DNA from: a virus
Taxonomy: Duplodnaviria > Heunggongvirae > Uroviricota > Caudoviricetes
Length of the DNA: 64,000 nt
IMG/VR virus record: IMGVR_UViG_3300010369_000001
Strand: one strand, 5' to 3'
The first letter of the stretch is position 1. The number at the start of each line of letters is the position of its first letter. The notes beneath the pieces were generated by a model, which ran no database searches, was not told where the DNA came from, and saw only the letters and a list, made by a program, of their open reading frames with translations. A program made the translations under genes and the position numbers. This document shows positions 47,427-59,972 of this stretch, piece by piece.

Positions 47427-47875
47427 TATTCTGCTCCCCCGAAAACTGAAGTTGCTGGATTAAAAGGCTCATAATGTTGCTCGGCAGCTGATTGCTCGGC
47501 AAACAGTTTATCCATCTGCATCGACCGGCTGTTTTCATTAACATTGGGTGTTCGTATCCAGCCAAAACTTGCTAATAGGTCATTTGCCATATTCGCCGCC
47601 CTAGCCGCCGCTAAGCCGCCAACAATTGCAACAGCCATTGCAAAGAATGGATTAAACATTACACAAGCGCCAATGCCTACAAAGAAAATACCCAAATAAT
47701 TAGAATAGCAGAAAGGGCAGCTCATTAGCTCGCCCAACCATTTTGTTGCCTTATTTTTCTCAAAATATTTACCAAGTGACCGCCACCAATTGCCAGCAGC
47801 TGAGTGGTGTAAGATTTCTGTTAGCTGCCATACGGCGGCACAGGATATGATGAACCAAAGCCCAAATGTGATCAT
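47426..47875 (-). CDS. hypothetical membrane protein (3-4 TM helices)
   Basis: FGLWFIISCAAVW, YLGIFFVGIGACVMF and FAMAVAIVGGLAAA. Confidence 0.45.
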   Translation of the reverse strand: MITFGLWFIISCAAVWQLTEILHHSAAGNWWRSLGKYFEKNKATKWLGELMSCPFCYSNYLGIFFVGIGACVMFNPFFAMAVAIVGGLAAARAANMANDLLASFGWIRTPNVNENSRSMQMDKLFAEQSAAEQHYEPFNPATSVFGGAE

Positions 47876-50241
47876 AGATTTTTAAGTAATTCAGCAGCGC
47901 TTATTTCAGTCTGCTCGTAACCTTGTTTTTCATATAATTTCTTCCGTTCAGCGGAAAAATGTTTAAATTCTGTACTCCAATAATCATAAAAGTCGTGAAC
48001 TACTCCATAAGGCTTATCGTCCCCCAGCCTAGCCACTCTGCCAGTTAGCTGAATATTGGCCACCTCTGATTTCAGCCCGCAGGCATTAATTAACACAGCT
48101 AAATTAGGGAAATCTACGCCCTCTCGCCATATGGCTGTGGCAATTACTCGTTTCAAGGTGCCTTTCTTAAACGCACCTCTAGCGCGATCTAAATCTGGCG
48201 TTTCCGAGCTAACTACTAGATAATTTGGTAAAAGCTGCCTTAAAGCCATCGCGTGCTTTATTGTTTCCACAATAATCAGCACCTGTGTATCTTCGTCGTA
48301 AGACTTAGCCGCCGCTGCAATTAAATTATTTCTGGGGGCATTGTACCAGATACCTCTGTGCTTCTTGTAAGCTGAATGGCATTTACCTACCGGATTATAT
48401 TGCAGATGAACTGGTACCCATTTTACCTTCACAGGAGCAACCATACCTTGCTTTGTAGCTTCTTTGGTATCAACTGTAATTAATTTTGGCCCCATCAAGC
48501 CTAGAAGACGGAATTGGGCCCCATCGCTTCTGTTAAAGCTACCTGTCAGCCCAAATATCCTTGGTTTGACCATCGTGGAGATAGTCTTAAAAGTATCAGG
48601 CGCTGCAGCTAAATGGCAATTGCCGCTTATGAAAGAAAAGCCTTCTGACCTTACTACAATATTGCCGCTCGGCACCTCCACACAATAAACGTTGCCTGAA
48701 TACTTCTCTAATTCATGTGTAACGTTTTTAAACGTATTGTGCTCTTTTTTCGACATGAATAATCTGTGCATATCTTGATAAGATTCTTTTCGATAATCTT
48801 TTTGTATGCTTTGAACACAACTAAAACCTCCCTGAATAGCAATGGCTGACACTAAATCTACATTTTCTTTTACACTGCTGCTGTAGTATTGGTAGTCTTT
48901 TTTTAGAATATATCCGTCCCACAATGATACCTCATTTACAAAATCAACTGCGTAAGCACGAGTTACCGCTACATTATTAAACCAAGTTATTAAATTTTTA
49001 GTTATTTCGAGTGGTGTTTTGATCACAAATCGAACATACCCTTCCCTGTCTATAGGTATTTCTTTAAATTCAACGCCTGACTCCAATAATATTTCTTTTA
49101 AGCGTAAAATTTTACGCTCTTTGACCAAGGATATAGACCAATATGCATAATCTCTTTTAACATAATTTCTAGTGCCGTCCGCCTGCAATGCAATAGCTAA
49201 TCGATCTATGGCCGCTAATGTAGCTATTTCATTAACGCCTATGCCTGACACAGGGTACTTATTGTATTGCGCACGAACTATATCAAGTATTGGTTTTTTG
49301 CAGACATTATCTTGCCTATCCAAATAAGTCTGATTATGTCCAACCGTCATTCGAACACTTCTTCCCTTATACAGAGTTAACTTAACTAAATCACCTGAAA
49401 ACTCTTTCTTAATATGTCGAAGTGGTTTTACAAACTGTATCGACCTATCTGCACTCCACTGCGCAATTAATTCTGTACCATCTAGCGAATCAAAACGTTT
49501 ATAACCTTTATTGGTTAATACCTCAGTATCTCCAGTAAAACATTCATCGCAAATATAAAAGTCATAGTCTTCTCCGAAACTAAGTATTTTAGTAAGGGAT
49601 TTATTTCCACATACCACGACCCTAGCTTGCTTAACTTGAGCTTGTGTAATAGACTTACCAGCTTGTTGTATAAAATACTTAGTGCCCGGCATATTATATT
49701 TGCGGATACGTTCACCTATAGTTGAATAAACTTGAGCTCGATAACTGCTTATAAGAATACGCGCTTTAGGGAACACTAGTGGCATTATACCAACAAGCTC
49801 ACTTTTACCAAAAGCAACAGAGCAAACTATAATACCGCCGGCATTTTTAGCCATTAGCTCCAAGACTTCTTTTTGTTTATAACGGAACTCAAAGTCAGCT
49901 GGGATTTTGTCCCATACGGGTACATAATTTTCAGCGGGTGATAGCTCAGTTATTTTATGCTCTACCTTTATTTTATGCTTAAGACAAAACGCTAAAATTG
50001 CGGGTAGGTACCCGTGAAAAGTCACAATCTGAGCGGGGATGGCTGTTGTACTTAAATCAACTGTTTGACCGTTAGTGTCATAACCGCTGCCGAGTATCTC
50101 TGGCGTAAGAGTTCTTTTATTAGCCTCTCTATCAAACCCTACAAGTGTGTACGAGAAGCATTTCTTTAGCTCGTAATACAAATGTAAGGGGAAGGAGCGA
50201 ATAATTAAAAGATTTCCATAAGTTTCAATGTCAATTATCAT
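47872..50241 (-). CDS. SF2 DExH-box helicase precursor interrupted by an intein (predicted mature helicase 481 aa)
   Basis: Walker A AFGKSE; motif II reconstituted across the intein as FYICDE|CHLAAAP (DECH); motif VI QLTGRVARLG. Confidence 0.75.
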   Translation of the reverse strand: MIIDIETYGNLLIIRSFPLHLYYELKKCFSYTLVGFDREANKRTLTPEILGSGYDTNGQTVDLSTTAIPAQIVTFHGYLPAILAFCLKHKIKVEHKITELSPAENYVPVWDKIPADFEFRYKQKEVLELMAKNAGGIIVCSVAFGKSELVGIMPLVFPKARILISSYRAQVYSTIGERIRKYNMPGTKYFIQQAGKSITQAQVKQARVVVCGNKSLTKILSFGEDYDFYICDECFTGDTEVLTNKGYKRFDSLDGTELIAQWSADRSIQFVKPLRHIKKEFSGDLVKLTLYKGRSVRMTVGHNQTYLDRQDNVCKKPILDIVRAQYNKYPVSGIGVNEIATLAAIDRLAIALQADGTRNYVKRDYAYWSISLVKERKILRLKEILLESGVEFKEIPIDREGYVRFVIKTPLEITKNLITWFNNVAVTRAYAVDFVNEVSLWDGYILKKDYQYYSSSVKENVDLVSAIAIQGGFSCVQSIQKDYRKESYQDMHRLFMSKKEHNTFKNVTHELEKYSGNVYCVEVPSGNIVVRSEGFSFISGNCHLAAAPDTFKTISTMVKPRIFGLTGSFNRSDGAQFRLLGLMGPKLITVDTKEATKQGMVAPVKVKWVPVHLQYNPVGKCHSAYKKHRGIWYNAPRNNLIAAAAKSYDEDTQVLIIVETIKHAMALRQLLPNYLVVSSETPDLDRARGAFKKGTLKRVIATAIWREGVDFPNLAVLINACGLKSEVANIQLTGRVARLGDDKPYGVVHDFYDYWSTEFKHFSAERKKLYEKQGYEQTEISAAELLKNL
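48619..49542 (-). mobile_element. intein (308 aa) with LAGLIDADG-like homing-endonuclease region, inserted between DE and CH of helicase motif II
   Basis: N-terminal CFTGDTEVLT; block B RMTVGHNQTY (T..H); LAIALQADGT (LAGLIDADG-like); C-terminal NVYCVEVPSGNIVV...FSFISGN followed by +1 Cys (CHLAAAP). Splicing gives ...ICDECHLAAAP. Confidence 0.65.
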
Positions 50242-51386: not shown

Positions 51387-51676
51387 GACAATACGGGTGG
51401 CCCAATTACTGCCACATGAATAGGAACACCTTCTAATTCATACGGTATGCTAATTTCTGGGGCACTATTACAGTAAACATAAAGACATCCCTCTCCTACA
51501 CCAACACACTGAAACCAACCATCCGTTGAATGAATGTCGCCGCGAATACAGTGTTCATATAAGGTTTGAACTAAGCTATAAGCTTTTTCTTGAAGCAGTA
51601 CCTTCTCTTCAATATATATTTCTTTTAGTCGAGCTTTAAGCTTCCTCTTCTCTTTTGATAGAACTGTTTGCATCAT
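51383..51676 (-). CDS. hypothetical protein
   Basis: 97-aa ORF. Confidence 0.4.
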   Translation of the reverse strand: MMQTVLSKEKRKLKARLKEIYIEEKVLLQEKAYSLVQTLYEHCIRGDIHSTDGWFQCVGVGEGCLYVYCNSAPEISIPYELEGVPIHVAVIGPPVLS

Positions 51677-52352
51677 AAATTTTCCAATCGTTAGCTAACA
51701 TGTGGCGCGTTTGCGGTTCATATACTACTACTCTATCATTAAGATCGCAGCGCATAATAGGACGACAATCACCTGCTGAATATAGGTATTTCGGGCAGGC
51801 ATACGGGCATTGCTCGGTTATGCCTTGCTTTTCCCAAAATTCACGAACTACTTGCCATCCGTTGTTCATGGCCTGACAAGCCTCTAACCAGTTCATATGC
51901 TCGACTTCATGATTATTTATTTGATCAACAGTCGTGCTTTCCTGTAATTCATGCATAACCGTCGCAGCTATGCTACTTGATTGTGCCATGAGGGCGCGCA
52001 GTAAAGCATATGTGTCCACGTATGAGCCTCTAGATAACATTTCTCTAAGCGCTACCTCTAGTGCTAGTTTTACTCTTGGGGTTAAAGTCGGGCTTGCCTC
52101 CTCACAGCACGCGGACTCATTATTCGAAAAGCCAATGTATTTTTCGACACTTTTACGAAGTTGCGATTCAGTAACGTCTGCAGTGGCGCACACCTTATTT
52201 AACGCATGTAGCGCAGGGCCCCCCACCTTAGCGACTGCGAGTAAGATATGCTCCGTACCGATGTAGTTACAATTTCGCCGCTGAACTTCCTCTTTAGCGG
52301 CCATCATGATCTCATTAACTATAGGTGTGTAATTATTACTTGTAATCATCAT
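51636..52352 (-). CDS. Clp N-terminal-domain (Clp_N repeat) protein
   Basis: Two Clp_N-type repeats: AAKEEVQRRNCNYIGTEHILLAVAKVGGPALHALNKV and RVKLALEVALREMLSRGSYVDTYALLRALMAQ. Compare ClpA/ClpB N-domain ..TVEHLLLALL... Confidence 0.65.
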   Translation of the reverse strand: MMITSNNYTPIVNEIMMAAKEEVQRRNCNYIGTEHILLAVAKVGGPALHALNKVCATADVTESQLRKSVEKYIGFSNNESACCEEASPTLTPRVKLALEVALREMLSRGSYVDTYALLRALMAQSSSIAATVMHELQESTTVDQINNHEVEHMNWLEACQAMNNGWQVVREFWEKQGITEQCPYACPKYLYSAGDCRPIMRCDLNDRVVVYEPQTRHMLANDWKIYDANSSIKREEEA

Positions 52353-53326
52353 CCTAACTCCTTCATTTTGTATCTTTGCAGCTTATCAGCTAAGGCTTTA
52401 TAAAACGACTGATGAGGTGGTGCAATATGATCCATACTTAGGTCGTTCCATTTAACACGAACTAACCCAGTAATATCGTCGTGAGCCTCAGGCGTACCTC
52501 CACAAACCTGTCCCAAATATAAAATCGAAATAATTTTATTGATTTCAGCTCTGTAGCGGTAATCATCTATTTGCATGGAAGTAACGTAGCTAAGATTTGT
52601 AATGTCCAGCCCGGCTTCTTCTTTGACTTCACGCTTAGCAGTATACTCATACGAAGTATCGCCAGGATCAGCAAAACCTCCAATAAACAGATACTGCTGC
52701 TGATATGTTTTGCTTTTTTGTCCAAGCCAGATATAAAGATTATCAAAATTAGGCGGAATTAATTCACCTTCAAAAATAGCTACGTCCACGCAAGGGTAAA
52801 CCGCATCAAATTGATTTTGAGTTGCCCATATTACGCCTTCGCGCCACCATTTATTACCTACTACTCGCTTACCGCACTCAGCTCGATCTTCCGTAGCTGA
52901 AGTTTGGTAAAGCTGCAAAGGTTTATACTCATGTGTACTAAATTTACCTTCGTAAGCCCATAGAAAGCTATCACGACTGCCGTAGAGCACAGCTGCCCTG
53001 TTGCCAGCTAGCTCCGCTATGATTTTATCTAATTTAGCTGACCATTCAGCATTATCGCCTGGAATGTCCTCTATTACGGCAAAAGATACCTTTCTTTCAA
53101 AGCCAAACTTTAGATCGTAGACATAGTCTTGAAGCATCCTAATCCTAGAATCTACATCAAGAGGATGACGTTTAGTTGCTGTGCCAAGTAATGATTTACC
53201 CAAAACAATAATGGTGAGATTATGATTTTGCCCTAATACATAGTTAATTAAATCTTTTTGACCGTCATGAGGCTCAGCACATTGCCATCGTCCCACAATG
53301 ACCCCAACATCCGTTCTAGTTGTCAT
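52349..53326 (-). CDS. natV: bifunctional NMN adenylyltransferase / Nudix hydrolase (NatV/NadM-Nudix-like)
   Basis: N-terminal nucleotidyltransferase motif VIVGRWQCAEPHDGQ (GRFQP.H.GH-like). C-terminal Nudix box GGFADPGDTSYEYTAKREVKEEAGL. Confidence 0.8.
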   Translation of the reverse strand: MTTRTDVGVIVGRWQCAEPHDGQKDLINYVLGQNHNLTIIVLGKSLLGTATKRHPLDVDSRIRMLQDYVYDLKFGFERKVSFAVIEDIPGDNAEWSAKLDKIIAELAGNRAAVLYGSRDSFLWAYEGKFSTHEYKPLQLYQTSATEDRAECGKRVVGNKWWREGVIWATQNQFDAVYPCVDVAIFEGELIPPNFDNLYIWLGQKSKTYQQQYLFIGGFADPGDTSYEYTAKREVKEEAGLDITNLSYVTSMQIDDYRYRAEINKIISILYLGQVCGGTPEAHDDITGLVRVKWNDLSMDHIAPPHQSFYKALADKLQRYKMKELG

Positions 53327-53436
53327 AGTAATTCCTTTAAGGGTTAAAGTCTCCGTCGGAAATATAATAAAGTATCGCCATGAGCAGAACTAAAATTATA
53401 AATGTAAGTAAAAGGTGCATTAAATGTATTTCTAAA

Positions 53437-54177
53437 TTAAGCATCAATTTTTTGAACTATTTCATGCATATCGGCTACAATTCGGGCATATTCCGGGAGA
53501 TGGCTATAGCGAGAATATTTACGAATAATCTGCCTCGGACAGTAGCCGTATATGTTAGTCACTGAATCTTTAACAGGTTTTTTCCTGGGATGCTTAACTA
53601 GAGTAGTCTCAACATTCCAAAGTTTACACACCGGGCAAGCATCTCCTGCCTGATACACTGCTTGAGTCTCCGGACAGCACATAGAGTCAATCCCGTCACC
53701 GCTACTAAAACCTTCCGTATTCATTCTAAGAATTCCATCATATTTCCATGCCTCTGGCGGAAGATTCTTACCTTGACAATGGCTTACGTCATAGACGTGA
53801 AATAATGTCGCGGCTGGATTAGCCATTAAACAATCCACAAATTTACCATCAGGGGTAACTCTAAGAGAGTGACTAAAACCACTAACAACATATTCCCAGC
53901 CCGCACTATCTTTAACAATTACTGGCAGTTGACCTATTTCTAATTGCTCGCTAAAGTTTACTATGACTTGATTAAGATGATCGTTATACTCGCCAATCGG
54001 GTAAAGATGTAGCTCATCGTGAAACCGTGACCAACCTTTTATATTTTTTTCTTCAACAAACTTATCAAGAACGCTAATCATTCTAGGATCGACCGTACTT
54101 AATAAAGTTTCTATAGCCTCTCTTGTCGCATATTTTTTAGGCATGTGTAATTTTTGGTGAAAGATTAAGTGGGCCAC
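53437..54177 (-). CDS. hypothetical protein embedded between natV and nadV
   Basis: 246-aa ORF with a C-terminal Cys cluster CCPETQ...CPVC; no recognisable family. Confidence 0.5.
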   Translation of the reverse strand: MAHLIFHQKLHMPKKYATREAIETLLSTVDPRMISVLDKFVEEKNIKGWSRFHDELHLYPIGEYNDHLNQVIVNFSEQLEIGQLPVIVKDSAGWEYVVSGFSHSLRVTPDGKFVDCLMANPAATLFHVYDVSHCQGKNLPPEAWKYDGILRMNTEGFSSGDGIDSMCCPETQAVYQAGDACPVCKLWNVETTLVKHPRKKPVKDSVTNIYGYCPRQIIRKYSRYSHLPEYARIVADMHEIVQKIDA

Positions 54178-54205
54178 AGGTTAGTTGCGACCCCACTTAA
54201 TAAAT

Positions 54206-55633
54206 TTAGTACGCGTTAGCTCTTACTTCATCAAAAGTATATTCTTTCATAATTTTTCCATCACGAAAGACTTCAACCATAGCTGGCTTCCACGTACGGG
54301 TTTGATCGTCATCTTTACCGCGACCCATAAAACTAGTTTCATTAACAGTATAAAACCCGCCGGTATCAGATTTAAACGTGGTAACAAGACCTCGTTTAGA
54401 CTGTTTACCGTGATCCGTAATTGGATCTTTGAACACTTCTTGCCAGCGGCCATCTCGCTCAATGGCGCTGCACTTAAAGGCCATTTTCTGGGTGTCTCTG
54501 TTAAGCTGTTGAAGTAACGCTCCGCCAGAACCGAAAGCGATGTTTTCAGCTGAATAGCCGCGCTGTTGCATTGCATACAAGATAGCATCTATACTTTCAA
54601 TATTAACGCCGTCGCCTTGAATAACGCGGATTTTGTTATTTAGCAGCTTGTAACCTTTATCGCTGATCGTTCCGCCAAACTCGCCCCAAAGAATATCCAT
54701 TACATTCTCATTACCCGTAACCAGTACTTGAATTGGATCACCAGAGTCAGGGCGGATGACCAACGTTCCATCTCGTTCAAGAATCATATCTCGTAATGGA
54801 TAACGACCCCACATTCGACAAGCTTCAAAAATATTGAAAGAATCAGATACACAGGCTACGATACCAGTCGGATAGGCTTCTAGCATATTCTTATAAGCTA
54901 ATATCTCGTCCTCGCGACCCCAGCTTGTTATTGTAGAATGCTCGCTAGCTGGAATACTAAAACCTGCCATATCTGCACCATAGTAATAGCTAGCATATTC
55001 TATAGCTGCCATTGTGTCAGTTCCCTTGAAATTAATCAAGTGAGCCATTCCGCCAAGGCCAGCACTCTCGCAAGAGCTAACTCCTCGAAAACCGAAATCA
55101 TGAAGCTTAAAATCAATACTATCAGCATTACCTTGTGTCTTCATTAGATACTTAGTAATGAGATGTTTCATTTCACGAGACTGTGTCGCAACAGTGCACG
55201 GATACCAAAGCTGCATTAACAATGTTTCAAGATAATTAGTTAACCAGTAACATTTCGGATCCGTATTACAAATAACTACCAACGGATGCCCAGTTGGGAC
55301 AGGAGTTCCTTCTGGAATTGCCCAAATAGAAACGGGTAACCTGCCATCATGTTTATCGTAAATATACTCCCAGCCTTCTTTATTAAACAATCCTGGGCCG
55401 AGATGCTGTTCCATGCGTTGTGCAGCATAGTCAATATTGCCTTTCGTGAAAAGCGGATTATACGGATGATGCAAATACTCTTTTAAAATATATTGCAATC
55501 CAAAGAAAACTGTGTCAGACCATTTGCCGCCGCGTGATTCAAGATAGGAATAAATAGTCTGCGTATTTGGCGGATATTGTCGCCAATGTGATACTTTATA
55601 TGAGTCAGTTAGTAACAGCAGGTTCGGTCTCAT
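54206..55633 (-). CDS. nadV: nicotinamide phosphoribosyltransferase (NadV/NAMPT)
   Basis: LHDFGFRGVSSCESAGLGGMAHLINFKGTDTM; length is consistent with NAMPT. Confidence 0.85.
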   Translation of the reverse strand: MRPNLLLLTDSYKVSHWRQYPPNTQTIYSYLESRGGKWSDTVFFGLQYILKEYLHHPYNPLFTKGNIDYAAQRMEQHLGPGLFNKEGWEYIYDKHDGRLPVSIWAIPEGTPVPTGHPLVVICNTDPKCYWLTNYLETLLMQLWYPCTVATQSREMKHLITKYLMKTQGNADSIDFKLHDFGFRGVSSCESAGLGGMAHLINFKGTDTMAAIEYASYYYGADMAGFSIPASEHSTITSWGREDEILAYKNMLEAYPTGIVACVSDSFNIFEACRMWGRYPLRDMILERDGTLVIRPDSGDPIQVLVTGNENVMDILWGEFGGTISDKGYKLLNNKIRVIQGDGVNIESIDAILYAMQQRGYSAENIAFGSGGALLQQLNRDTQKMAFKCSAIERDGRWQEVFKDPITDHGKQSKRGLVTTFKSDTGGFYTVNETSFMGRGKDDDQTRTWKPAMVEVFRDGKIMKEYTFDEVRANAY

Positions 55634-57279: not shown

Positions 57280-58012
57280 TAGCTAATCTCTCCTTGTTGC
57301 TCTCAAGAAATTGCATTATTTCCGCAAGTAACTGATCCTTCTTTGCTGCTGTGCGCGTCGTTTCCCAGCCGCCCTGGTTATGAACATAGTTAATGAGCCG
57401 ATACATAGACACAAACTTATCTATACCATTGACTATCCGTTCATTTTGACTGCGCAACTGTTCTTCAGCGACCGCTATCTCTTCAAGTTCAGATAAATTG
57501 ACAACAATTTTAAATTCCTTACAAAAAGCTTTAAGGTTATTTAATTGCTGATAATTTGAGAAAGTATATCCTTCACGCGGGCCTATAACAATGGTAGTAT
57601 AAGGTTTTATATTTCCTCCCGAAGTATATATGTACCTAACGCGCAATATATTACCGCCCTCAAGAATTAAATCGTGCCCGTACAACGAAGATGGCATCAC
57701 AGCTGATGTCCGGTAATTTGTAAAATCATTTATATCAGGTGACATAAATTTTAATACAAATTTACCGCTATCTTTTTCCATAAAAACTGTGTGCGGTAAA
57801 GAGAGAACATAACGCAACAAAATTACTTTTATCTCGTCCTGTTCAACAAACTTATGCAACTCCTTATTTTTTGCAAAATATTCGGCAGCACTATTTTCAT
57901 AATCAACTTCAAGACGCGCTAGTTCAAAAGTTCTATCTATATATTTTCGAACAACAGCGTCAGCTTGTTTTCGAGCCCCATCGCATTGCAACCCAACTAA
58001 AAAATCAGACAT
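57260..58012 (-). CDS. hypothetical protein
   Basis: 250-aa ORF. Confidence 0.5.
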   Translation of the reverse strand: MSDFLVGLQCDGARKQADAVVRKYIDRTFELARLEVDYENSAAEYFAKNKELHKFVEQDEIKVILLRYVLSLPHTVFMEKDSGKFVLKFMSPDINDFTNYRTSAVMPSSLYGHDLILEGGNILRVRYIYTSGGNIKPYTTIVIGPREGYTFSNYQQLNNLKAFCKEFKIVVNLSELEEIAVAEEQLRSQNERIVNGIDKFVSMYRLINYVHNQGGWETTRTAAKKDQLLAEIMQFLESNKERLANVVKKP

Positions 58013-59972
58013 TTATTTCAGTTCCTTCAATTTGGTCAATAAGCTCTTGCTTAAGTTCCTTAATATTTGAATAAGATAAGTATTGTATTTCAGGGTACTT
58101 TCCCCTTAATACGTGAGTATAAAAGTAATGAACCCCGTAACAGCAGCAAGCAGTAAAGTCATCGGGCTGTTGAGAAGTGGCGCTACGAATAATAGTATAT
58201 ACATCAGAGGCGAAATTCGTACTATGCTTGTCCTCAACAAGCGACAAGAAATCATCCACCAATCCAAGCTTACCTCCTTCAACTGTGTCATACTGAAAAA
58301 ACCTAACATATCCTTGCTTTATGAAAGAAATCAACCACATCAAGCCCCTAGCTTTATCTAAATTATAGCCTGACCTGTCCCCCGTGCGCATGTCACCAGC
58401 TACCCACTGGGCAATAGCTCCTCGACGTATTCGACAATAATATATACGACAAAAGACATCGTCTGGAACTCCGAGCATACGCAACTGTGTCTCACGAGCT
58501 GACCCGCTGCCCTGTCCGTCATGAACAATCTTAGTAGCTAAGAACATTTTTTTGATGTTCAAGATGGTACCTATTTCTTTTTCATGATCATGCGGAGTAA
58601 GAGAACGATAACCAAAAGGAATATCAATCTTACCGTCATAACGCAAACAACAAACCGCAATAGTGGTGAAGGAAACTTCGTTAGCTCCTCCACCGCCCCA
58701 GTCTACGCTAATTATTACATCTTGGTAAATACCGGTTTTAAATTGTTTCTTAACGTGCTCAGCTGCCTCTTGGATACGATTGACACTTGTGGGCAGCTTA
58801 CACGCCTCCTTTAATTCAGTAAGTGTAATAAGTCGGGAACTGCCGTCATAAGATACGCCGCATATTTCGTTATAAAATTTAGCAGGAGTCGTATTATCCG
58901 CACCTTCCCGATAACCCAATAATTTATTCCAAGAAGCGCTGTCTTCACAGTGCTGAGGCAAGACTAGCTGAGGTACATGGTAGCCTACATTTTCCCATCT
59001 CTTTTCTGGGTGCGCATGTACCCACATACCTTGTCTAGTATCCAGCGGTTTACCGCATCTTTTCTTTTGCCCGGCCAGTAGGCCAGCACAGACAATACCA
59101 GGAGTTTCTCGACTTACTTTCCACCTAGGCACACGAGGCCCAATCATCGCATCCAAATCTGCATCAAGGCTAGGATTATTCCAATGACCGCAACTAGCGC
59201 AGCGAATGCACCATTCAGCTTTGCTGCTAATAGCCCAGTATTGCTCCATAGTGTTGTCCATGGTTTTGGGTGTACCGAAACGTCGTATAAAACGTAAATG
59301 GCGAGGAGCAGAAGCTGCGCACTGATTAATAATAGGAGGATATTCAGGATCAAAGTCACCGATTTCGTCGTAGAAAATTGCGTATGTTGAAATACCTCGA
59401 CATCTAGTTACAGAAGTAAAGGCGTATGAGAAATATAAAATTGATCGATTTATGAAATCGCGTTGAAGGATCGAATCAGAACATTGTGCATTTACCATGA
59501 GACCTCTAATCGGCGACTCATGAATAAAAGGCTTCACATAGTTCTGAGATAATCTTCGCACCTGCTCAAACAGCGGCGTCACTGTTAATATTCTCATGTG
59601 AGGTATTAACATAGCTAGTCCCACCGCCGATGCCGCTATTGTCATGCTCTTTCCCACCTGACGGCCGGCACATATCACAGCATTGGACGCAATTTGGGTT
59701 GAGAAAATAGGCTCAAAGAAAAAATGGCGATCTAACGTGTAAGGCTTCTGGTCGAGATTAAACATCAATGGCAAAACATTTACCATCGATAAATTTACGC
59801 CCTCTAGAATATTAGAAATATTCTGTAAAATTGTTTTAGCGTTATCATAATTAACTTCACCAGTTTTTATGGCCTTAGCTAATGTACTGAGCTGCTTTCC
59901 TTCTATTGAGCTGGTGCTTTCACCAGCTCGAACCGTCCTGACTTCAGGTGACGGTAATTTTATGCGCGTCAT
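58005..59972 (-). CDS. terL: terminase large subunit
   Basis: Walker A-like ICAGRQVGKSM (compare T4 gp17 SRQLGKT), a downstream acidic Walker B-like YAIFYDEIGDF, and 655 aa length. Those three features are the whole basis for this call. Confidence 0.7.
   Translation of the reverse strand: MTRIKLPSPEVRTVRAGESTSSIEGKQLSTLAKAIKTGEVNYDNAKTILQNISNILEGVNLSMVNVLPLMFNLDQKPYTLDRHFFFEPIFSTQIASNAVICAGRQVGKSMTIAASAVGLAMLIPHMRILTVTPLFEQVRRLSQNYVKPFIHESPIRGLMVNAQCSDSILQRDFINRSILYFSYAFTSVTRCRGISTYAIFYDEIGDFDPEYPPIINQCAASAPRHLRFIRRFGTPKTMDNTMEQYWAISSKAEWCIRCASCGHWNNPSLDADLDAMIGPRVPRWKVSRETPGIVCAGLLAGQKKRCGKPLDTRQGMWVHAHPEKRWENVGYHVPQLVLPQHCEDSASWNKLLGYREGADNTTPAKFYNEICGVSYDGSSRLITLTELKEACKLPTSVNRIQEAAEHVKKQFKTGIYQDVIISVDWGGGGANEVSFTTIAVCCLRYDGKIDIPFGYRSLTPHDHEKEIGTILNIKKMFLATKIVHDGQGSGSARETQLRMLGVPDDVFCRIYYCRIRRGAIAQWVAGDMRTGDRSGYNLDKARGLMWLISFIKQGYVRFFQYDTVEGGKLGLVDDFLSLVEDKHSTNFASDVYTIIRSATSQQPDDFTACCCYGVHYFYTHVLRGKYPEIQYLSYSNIKELKQELIDQIEGTEINV

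Follow-up and report, generated by a model that had tools for sequence, protein, structure and literature searches.

A LAGLIDADG intein in the DExH motif of a UvsW-like helicase from an uncultured phage is predicted to be splicing-competent

Inteins lacking a penultimate His have long been known (e.g. Wang and Liu, 1997 and Chen et al., 2000, as cited in PMC4031507), and two inteins of this kind that have been tested are the closest described systems to the element analysed here: a 308-amino-acid insert in a helicase gene of an uncultured phage (Caudoviricetes; IMG/VR record IMGVR_UViG_3300010369_000001). The whole stretch of DNA that was analysed, 64,000 nucleotides in length, is referred to as the window.

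The first of these systems is the 317-amino-acid intein of mycobacteriophage Bethlehem gp51, which has Gly316 as its penultimate residue and splices essentially completely in E. coli; a G316H substitution slows splicing so that precursor accumulates (Kelley et al., PMC5050341). The authors who tested it treated it as a class 1 intein and found the penultimate His to be poorly conserved among phage class 1 inteins (PMC5050341). The second is the AceL NrdHF intein (6zgq), an atypical class 3 intein that begins with Ala1, has an M-C-T triplet in place of W-C-T and uses Cys124 of block F as its essential first nucleophile (Hoffmann et al., PMC7891396). It has no His at block positions F:13 and G:6 (G:6 being the penultimate residue), and has a Pro-Gly kink after the block F Cys; its G:5 Thr hydrogen-bonds the block B His and it makes use of an Arg at B:11. 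Its half-time of splicing with the native penultimate Gly is about 4 minutes, and a G145H substitution abolishes its activity (PMC7891396).

The insert in the window is a HINT domain that itself contains an inserted double-motif LAGLIDADG endonuclease, i.e. an intein, and it belongs to a known phage family, of which one cis-splicing member has been tested already, as has a split relative. What is new is the sequence of the intein and the particular protein that hosts it, a UvsW-like helicase from a large uncultured phage. Taking the two tested relatives together with the conservation described below, we consider it likely that the insert is a functional and mobile intein, which would be spliced out from its first residue (Cys1) to restore a 481-amino-acid helicase and would home by means of its endonuclease.

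An intein inserted in motif II of a helicase gene

The minus strand of the window from 47872 to 50241 is one uninterrupted open reading frame encoding a precursor of 789 amino acids. An earlier reading of the DNA made from the letters alone (the sequence-only reading) had placed a 308-residue intein at 48619-49542, splitting the DExH motif of a superfamily 2 (SF2) helicase, and translation confirmed these limits to the base: precursor residues 234-541 run from CFTGDTEVLT to FSFISGN. Deletion of this segment leaves a protein of 481 amino acids that reads ...FYICDE/CHLAAAP... (the slash marks the junction), in which a DECH box is recreated as that reading had claimed. The precursor is identical to a database protein, P0004, which is found on six phage-like contigs of up to 225 kb.

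The sequence-only reading had also proposed that the 481-residue extein be aligned with intein-free homologues. A search with this predicted extein as query matched the precursor P0004 and a series of helicases, including eleven of 481-501 amino acids with 35-66% identity; aligned with the precursor, all eleven (11/11) showed a single clean gap of exactly 308 columns. The gap is flanked by an invariant Asp232-Glu233 on one side and by [C/V/A]-His543 on the other. The N-extein aligned with these homologues along its full length as far as the invariant Asp-Glu pair and the C-extein from its first residue onwards, with His543 invariant; the C-extein also matched Pfam Helicase_C (E=1.3e-7). At the +1 position the intein-free relatives have C, V or A, and three intein-free proteins read DECH. 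One of the homologues, P0006 (66% identical), is encoded on a contig that shares its downstream genes with the intein-bearing locus, including a MazG-like gene and rIIA, and is therefore the orthologous locus without the insert. The 60 nucleotides around the spliced junction, in which GAAGACTATGACTTTTATATTTGCGATGAA meets TGCCATTTAGCTGCAGCGCCTGATACTTTT in the intein-less form, are identical to this orthologue at 46/60 positions and constitute a candidate homing target. The 308-residue segment is thus an insertion in the helicase gene. Its DNA is somewhat AT-richer than its surroundings: its guanine-cytosine content is 35.8%, while the two extein parts have 38-43% and the window as a whole 40.4%.

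The nature of the insert was established from profiles and from its predicted fold, with matches far above what chance would give. The intein alone scored 26.8 bits with NCBIfam TIGR01445 (intein_Nterm; curated cut-off 24.5), matched PHROG families that include intein-bearing ribonucleotide reductase, PhoH and ThyX proteins (E=3e-26), and was matched by independent relatives at E=4e-39. Pfam is nearly blind to it: Intein_splicing reached 17.9 bits, below its threshold of 35.8, and no Pfam LAGLIDADG model matched the insert at E<=1. Searching solved structures by phmmer with the intein as a single sequence returned noise only, and profile searches were needed to obtain matches. A profile of the splicing domain then found AceL NrdHF as the best solved structure (E=1.1e-12), followed by Spl DnaX (3.8e-7) and Mja KlbA (6e-7). 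A profile alignment with the VMA intein chains of 7qss/7qsu paired block B and both LAGLIDADG motifs (blocks C and E).

An AlphaFold2 model of the intein, built from 104 family sequences, had a pLDDT (predicted local distance difference test) of 96.7 and a pTM (predicted template-modelling score) of 0.93. Searched whole with Foldseek, the model matched the LAGLIDADG-endonuclease inteins TliVMA (E=1.8e-13), PI-PfuI, PI-SceI and PI-PkoII. Its central domain matched I-DmoI (E about 2e-5; template-modelling (TM) score normalised to target 0.5-0.56) as well as the endonuclease domain of each of PI-SceI, PI-PfuI and TliVMA; its splicing domain alone matched the AceL NrdHF intein 6zgq with a TM score of 0.84 normalised to target. 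TliVMA (7qss/7qsu), PI-PfuI (1dq3) and PI-SceI (1vde/1ef0) are built like the window intein, with a double-motif LAGLIDADG domain inserted in a HINT domain (E=1.8e-13 to 1e-8; query-normalised TM 0.54-0.65), although sequence identity is only 8-16% and the window intein, at 308 amino acids, is more compact. All three belong to the standard class 1 type and have an F:4 Asp, a penultimate His and an extra DNA-recognition region or stirrup domain.

Given the profile matches, the Foldseek results and the pairing of motifs, the insert is a HINT domain carrying a double-motif LAGLIDADG endonuclease. It has a Cys1 nucleophile, a block B TxxH, Asn308 followed by Cys+1 and, in the model, a HINT fold; the penultimate His, which is common in inteins but not obligatory, is replaced by Gly307. 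Both LAGLIDADG motifs end in an acidic residue followed by Gly. Block A, block B, the LAIALQADG motif and the terminal Asn followed by Cys were all found where the sequence-only reading had put them, and homologues, profiles, the fold model and the solved helicase structure 2oca agree with its proposal that a LAGLIDADG-bearing intein splits the DExH motif of a UvsW-like SF2 helicase. It had missed the second LAGLIDADG motif and the Cys in position 4 of block F (F:4). The parts of the gene are as follows.

47872..50241, minus strand: precursor open reading frame (SF2 UvsW/XPB-like helicase N-extein, intein and C-extein), 789 amino acids plus stop
49543..50241, minus strand: N-extein, residues 1-233, ending ...FYICDE, the first half of helicase motif II
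48619..49542, minus strand: intein of 308 amino acids, a HINT splicing domain into which a LAGLIDADG homing endonuclease domain is inserted
49522..49542, minus strand: block A, CFTGDTE; Cys1 (49540-49542; Cys234 of the precursor) is the predicted first nucleophile
49336..49347, minus strand: block B, T-V-G-H; Thr66 is B:7 and His69 is B:10; B:12 is Gln71, not Trp
48733..49230 (approximate limits), minus strand: LAGLIDADG homing endonuclease domain, intein residues about 105-270
49174-49200, minus strand: LAGLIDADG motif 1, LAIALQADG, with Asp122
49111-49122, minus strand: conserved KERK of the endonuclease domain
48913-48939, minus strand: LAGLIDADG motif 2, VNEVSLWDG, with Asp209
48619..48693, minus strand: blocks F and G, NVYCVEVPSGNIVVRSEGFSFISGN; Arg298, Ser306 (G:5) and Gly307 (G:6); His absent
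48682-48684, minus strand: F:4, Cys287 (NVYCVEVP); standard inteins have Asp here
48619-48624, minus strand: terminal Gly-Asn; Asn308 is G:7 (48619-48621)
47872..48618, minus strand: C-extein, residues 542-789 plus stop; Cys+1 (48616-48618) and then His form the second half of the DECH box

A large phage family with its own active-site signature

An exhaustive search of representative clusters with a 313-position profile found 15,377 clusters at E<=1e-3, of which 1,935 reached E<=1e-30; among the 150 best matches, most covered the whole profile; a word-indexed protein search found only three relatives of the intein, and one with a concatenated mini-intein profile. The nearest relative of the window intein among the cluster representatives is 45% identical. 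Catalytic positions were tabulated across 173 full-length members:

Residue 1: Cys 100% (173/173)
B:7: Thr 94%
B:10: His 100%
B:12: mostly M, L, Q, I or F; Trp in 4/173
F:4: Cys 100% (173/173)
Eleven residues past F:4 (residue 298): Arg/Lys 99%
G:5: Thr 42%, Ser 24%
G:6: Gly, 172/173
G:7: Asn 98%
+1: Cys 86%, Ser 11%, Thr 3%

The register at F:4 was set by profile alignments, which place Cys287 opposite residue 124 of AceL NrdHF and opposite the Asp in VYDIEV (Spl DnaX) and in IYDLTV (Mja KlbA), the block F position of this type that is termed F:4 in the literature. Both catalytic Asp residues of the endonuclease, which are 95-97% conserved across the family, are intact in the window copy; taken together with the K/R/K positions, the acidic residues show 84-97% conservation. 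At none (0) of the family-invariant positions does the window copy differ, and it has the family signature throughout, i.e. Cys1, TxxH, V-Y-C-V-x-V-P, an Arg or Lys about eleven residues later and [T/S/V]-G-N.

The sequence-only reading had noted a Gly, which is indeed present (Gly307), in lieu of a penultimate His, and had called it unusual, which does not hold within this family: Gly occupies G:6 in 172/173 members and a Gly-Asn ending is therefore the rule. The penultimate Gly, the His-free blocks F and G and the Cys at F:4 are fixed hallmarks of the family and not defects. Nor did Gly prove to be a reason to doubt splicing, as had been suggested, since two relatives splice with Gly at this position and substitution by His slows or abolishes their splicing (PMC5050341; PMC7891396). 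The two relatives show full competence of this active-site layout, in which a G:6 His is harmful.

An earlier scan of viral sequences had relied on N-terminal patterns and was hence biased for residue 1. Viral members were therefore sampled from IMG/VR by a block F pattern (VYCV[ET]VPS, taken from an alignment of eight C-terminal sequences), leaving the N terminus unconstrained. All 66 distinct members of this sample start with Cys (66/66), and no Cys1-lacking (Ala1) variant was found among them, with a pattern that would miss AceL-like sequences. The sample includes natural mini-inteins of 147-159 amino acids; those at IMG/VR loci L144, L157, L155 and L152 have Cys1 at the start, SGN or TGN at the end and no endonuclease domain.

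The family, which is mostly of phages, occurs in 202 deposited phage genomes, in genes for ribonucleotide reductase, NAMPT, PhoH, primase-helicase and DNA polymerase. Outside the window, a 787-bp contig encodes a protein (P0167) with two family inteins back to back, the first ending ...NIFVSGN and the next Cys serving both as its +1 residue and as Cys1 of the second (CLSFDTEILT...). Several other family matches have two to five profile matches within one protein.

The Bethlehem gp51 intein belongs to this family. Its database record states that the protein may contain an intein, and its sequence reads ...GNHD/CSWT... through to YEGEVWCLRVPNGRFFIEDGGKIHLTGN followed by Ser, matching the family profile over residues 8-313 (E=1e-24). 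It resembles the window intein in length, in its LAGLIDADG endonuclease, in Cys1, in a block F Cys (VWCLRVP) and in its TGN end, but differs in its host, a recombination directionality factor (RDF)/metallophosphoesterase in which the insertion site, ...GNHD/C, is a metallophosphoesterase motif, in having Ser+1 versus Cys+1, in the absence of the conserved Arg298 (FFIEDGG) and in that the mini-intein parts of the two are only about 19% identical. The AceL NrdHF sequence, rebuilt from printed alignments with the native Cys124 and Asn146 restored, aligned end to end with the family profile (E=2.7e-20). It shares with the window intein the block B xPNH, a B:12 residue other than Trp, the F:4 Cys followed by x-x-V-P, His-free blocks F and G and a T-G-N end; unlike the window intein it is naturally split, has no endonuclease domain and has Ala1 versus Cys1, Ser+1 versus Cys+1 and Arg at B:11 where the window intein has Asn.

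Compared with the established classes, the window intein departs from textbook class 1 at F:4, where Cys287 stands instead of Asp (or Trp), and at G:6. Class 3 inteins have a residue 1 other than Cys, Ser or Thr and a WCT triplet (Trp at B:12, Cys at F:4, Thr at G:5); here Cys1 is present and the triplet positions hold Gln71, Cys287 and Ser306, of which only the Cys fits. Membership of canonical class 3 was accordingly rejected, because Cys1 is present, B:12 is not Trp and G:5 is Ser instead of Thr. With the canonical WCT inteins (MP-Be DnaB, Msm and Mch DnaB-1) the window intein does share the F:4 Cys, the association with phages and insertion in ATPase motifs of helicase-type proteins, while differing from them in Cys1, B:12 Gln, G:5 Ser, G:6 Gly and Cys+1. 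A bacterial intein-like domain without a +1 nucleophile was also considered and rejected.

Predicted route of splicing and its alternatives

The window intein is predicted to be splicing-competent, with initiation at Cys1. The insertion, the fold, the family membership, the conservation and the intact acidic residues of the endonuclease are observed features of the locus; the individual splicing steps, the use of Cys1 and the activity of the endonuclease are proposed by comparison with the tested relatives and with established intein chemistry. The helicase would be translated as the 789-amino-acid precursor, which would be inactive because its ATPase motif II is split. Aided by Thr66 and His69 of block B, Cys1 (Cys234) would undergo an N-S acyl shift at Glu233; the N-extein would then be transferred to Cys+1, cyclisation of Asn308 would free the intein and the remaining thioester would rearrange to a peptide bond. 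This would restore DECH and give the 481-amino-acid UvsW/XPB-like helicase as product. The central LAGLIDADG domain would cut intein-less alleles at the DNA coding for DE/CH, and the intein would be copied during co-infection. That Cys1 is in use for initiation is suggested by its invariance, both in the 173/173 tabulated members and in the 66/66 sampled with no constraint on the N terminus.

Several observations weigh against this scheme. At F:4, where standard class 1 inteins have an Asp to coordinate the steps, the window intein has Cys287, and it lacks both of the His residues that commonly assist cyclisation of the Asn. Arg298 is a conserved candidate to substitute for the missing His in Asn cyclisation; AceL NrdHF has Thr at the aligned position. 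AceL NrdHF, moreover, starts splicing with its block F Cys, which leaves conservation as the argument for initiation at Cys1. The invariant Cys287 could be an assisting residue, a relay nucleophile or the partner in a regulatory disulfide.

We weighed three other explanations against splicing from Cys1. That the segment is no intein at all but an integral accessory domain of this helicase lineage, the outcome that the sequence-only reading had said would overturn it, can be practically dismissed: none of the eleven homologues keeps the segment (0/11) and all lack it exactly, which already refutes the idea; proteins unrelated to one another carry this module too, namely PhoH, ribonucleotide reductase, NAMPT, primase, DNA polymerase and a CHAP-domain protein; and its fold is that of a HINT domain plus LAGLIDADG. 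A decayed, splicing-dead intein, in which loss of the penultimate His has left the helicase dead or merely cleaved, is very improbable. Its departures from the textbook consensus (Gly at G:6, a His-free block F and Cys for Asp at F:4) and its low score with Pfam Intein_splicing could be read as signs of decay, but these departures are common to essentially the whole family and are shared by the two efficiently splicing relatives, in both of which restoration of the His is harmful; the open reading frame is also intact, 0 family-invariant residues are altered and an identical protein is encoded on six contigs.

A harder case is the same intein splicing by a class 3-like or relay route, in which Cys287 would attack the N-terminal junction or take the N-extein from Cys1, a branched thioester at block F would precede transfer to Cys+1, and Cys1 would be redundant or have another role, e.g. 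as a redox switch. We regard this as unlikely, while noting that the F:4 Cys is invariant (173/173) and that the closest solved relative by both sequence and HINT fold, AceL NrdHF, has been proven to need its F:4 Cys and has no nucleophile at residue 1 (PMC7891396). That relative also shares with the family the block B xPNHRM, the block F C-x-x-V-P and the TGN end, and its G:5 Thr, which bonds the block B His, has its counterpart in Ser at G:5 in the window intein and in Thr or Ser in 66% of the family. However, Cys1 is as invariant as Cys287, also in the sample drawn blind to the N terminus, and this would be unexpected if it were dispensable; Trp is absent from B:12; the +1 residue is Cys, whereas class 3 inteins typically have Ser or Thr; the family profile is unlike canonical WCT inteins, its matches named 'replicative DNA helicase' or 'DnaB intein' in the solved-structure set reaching only E>=0.07, over the N-terminal stretch alone; and the relative that does carry Cys1, Bethlehem gp51, was treated as class 1 by those who tested it. 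Initiation at Cys1 is hence the reading we prefer. The family keeps both Cys1 and the F:4 Cys and has yielded at least one intein of proven class 3 type, AceL NrdHF. It is therefore conceivable, if rather doubtful, that the family splices by a relay from Cys1 to the F:4 Cys to Cys+1, or by either route interchangeably; the window intein is compact, of the cis-splicing type and has all three cysteines, and would therefore be a convenient test case for such a relay.

Host helicase, favoured insertion site and genomic setting

The spliced extein matched PHROG 16 ('DNA helicase'; E=8e-47), and its best solved relative was T4 UvsW (2oca; E=9e-10) followed by XPB/Rad25 (E about 1e-6). It has the helicase motifs I (AFGKS), II (DE/CH), III (TGS) and VI (QLTGRVAR) and the two RecA-like domains of an SF2 helicase, with ResIII and Helicase_C matched in its homologues; motifs I, II (DECH), III and VI are shared with T4 UvsW and with archaeal and eukaryotic XPB (Rad25). 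Full-length matches in deposited phages, annotated as UvsW or as 'RNA-DNA + DNA-DNA helicase', are only 22-25% identical to the extein, and the label 'UvsW-like' is therefore reasonable but distant. The NCBIfam XPB model scored 66.7 bits on the extein, far under its equivalog cut-off of 610. In motif I (window 49798-49821, minus strand) the helicase reads SVAFGKSE, with Ala where most intein-free homologues have Gly (PGFGKS, TGYGKT); Ala is also found in the homologue P0013 and is probably tolerated variation.

Across the family, the junction is DE/CH in 100/172 members (the search-derived members and the window), and 117/173 inteins follow DE. The hosts' consensus contains SF2 helicase motifs I, II, III and VI. 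The site that the family favours most is the DE/CH junction of SF2 helicases. Earlier papers have described inteins located in ATPase motifs, Walker B among them, as well as in SF2 helicases (PMC4760082; PMC5050341). The inteins closest to that of the window are 41-45% identical to it and all lie at DE/CH, in exteins that are 16-27% identical to the window extein or cannot be aligned with it. This pattern fits movement of the intein between diverse helicase genes via conserved motif-coding DNA; ancient inheritance with faster divergence of the exteins is an alternative.

The window is phage DNA, with genes for a DNA polymerase, rIIA, an SbcC-like protein, the large terminase subunit and a DnaB-like helicase; no tRNA genes were found in it and it contains a single intein of the family. 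Megablast of the helicase gene against deposited phages gave 0 matches, and the large terminase subunit (58005-59972, minus strand) is <=26% identical to that of any deposited phage; the phage is without a close cultured relative. Just upstream of the helicase, NAMPT/NAPRTase and NUDIX genes (52349-55633, minus strand; assigned via locus L001) suggest a phage nicotinamide adenine dinucleotide-salvage module; in other phages, NAMPT genes host inteins of the same family as the window intein. A 238-amino-acid open reading frame at 51636-52352 (minus strand) has Pfam matches to Clp_N and, weakly, to a Tad2-like domain (DUF2829). Tad2 proteins are anti-Thoeris sponges.

For annotation, these results replace a 789-amino-acid protein of unclear architecture with a 481-amino-acid UvsW/XPB-like helicase and a 308-amino-acid LAGLIDADG intein. 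What looked odd at its C-terminal junction is normal in a very large phage intein family, one that Pfam detects poorly, and the signature of a penultimate Gly, His-free blocks F and G and a Cys at F:4 helps to recognise such inteins in metagenomes. The natural mini-inteins of the family could serve as compact tools for splicing and protein engineering. Finally, the role of an invariant F:4 Cys beside an invariant Cys1 bears on the evolution of class 3 splicing: if the family does use a relay or a dual route, the class 3 mechanism would have arisen more than once.

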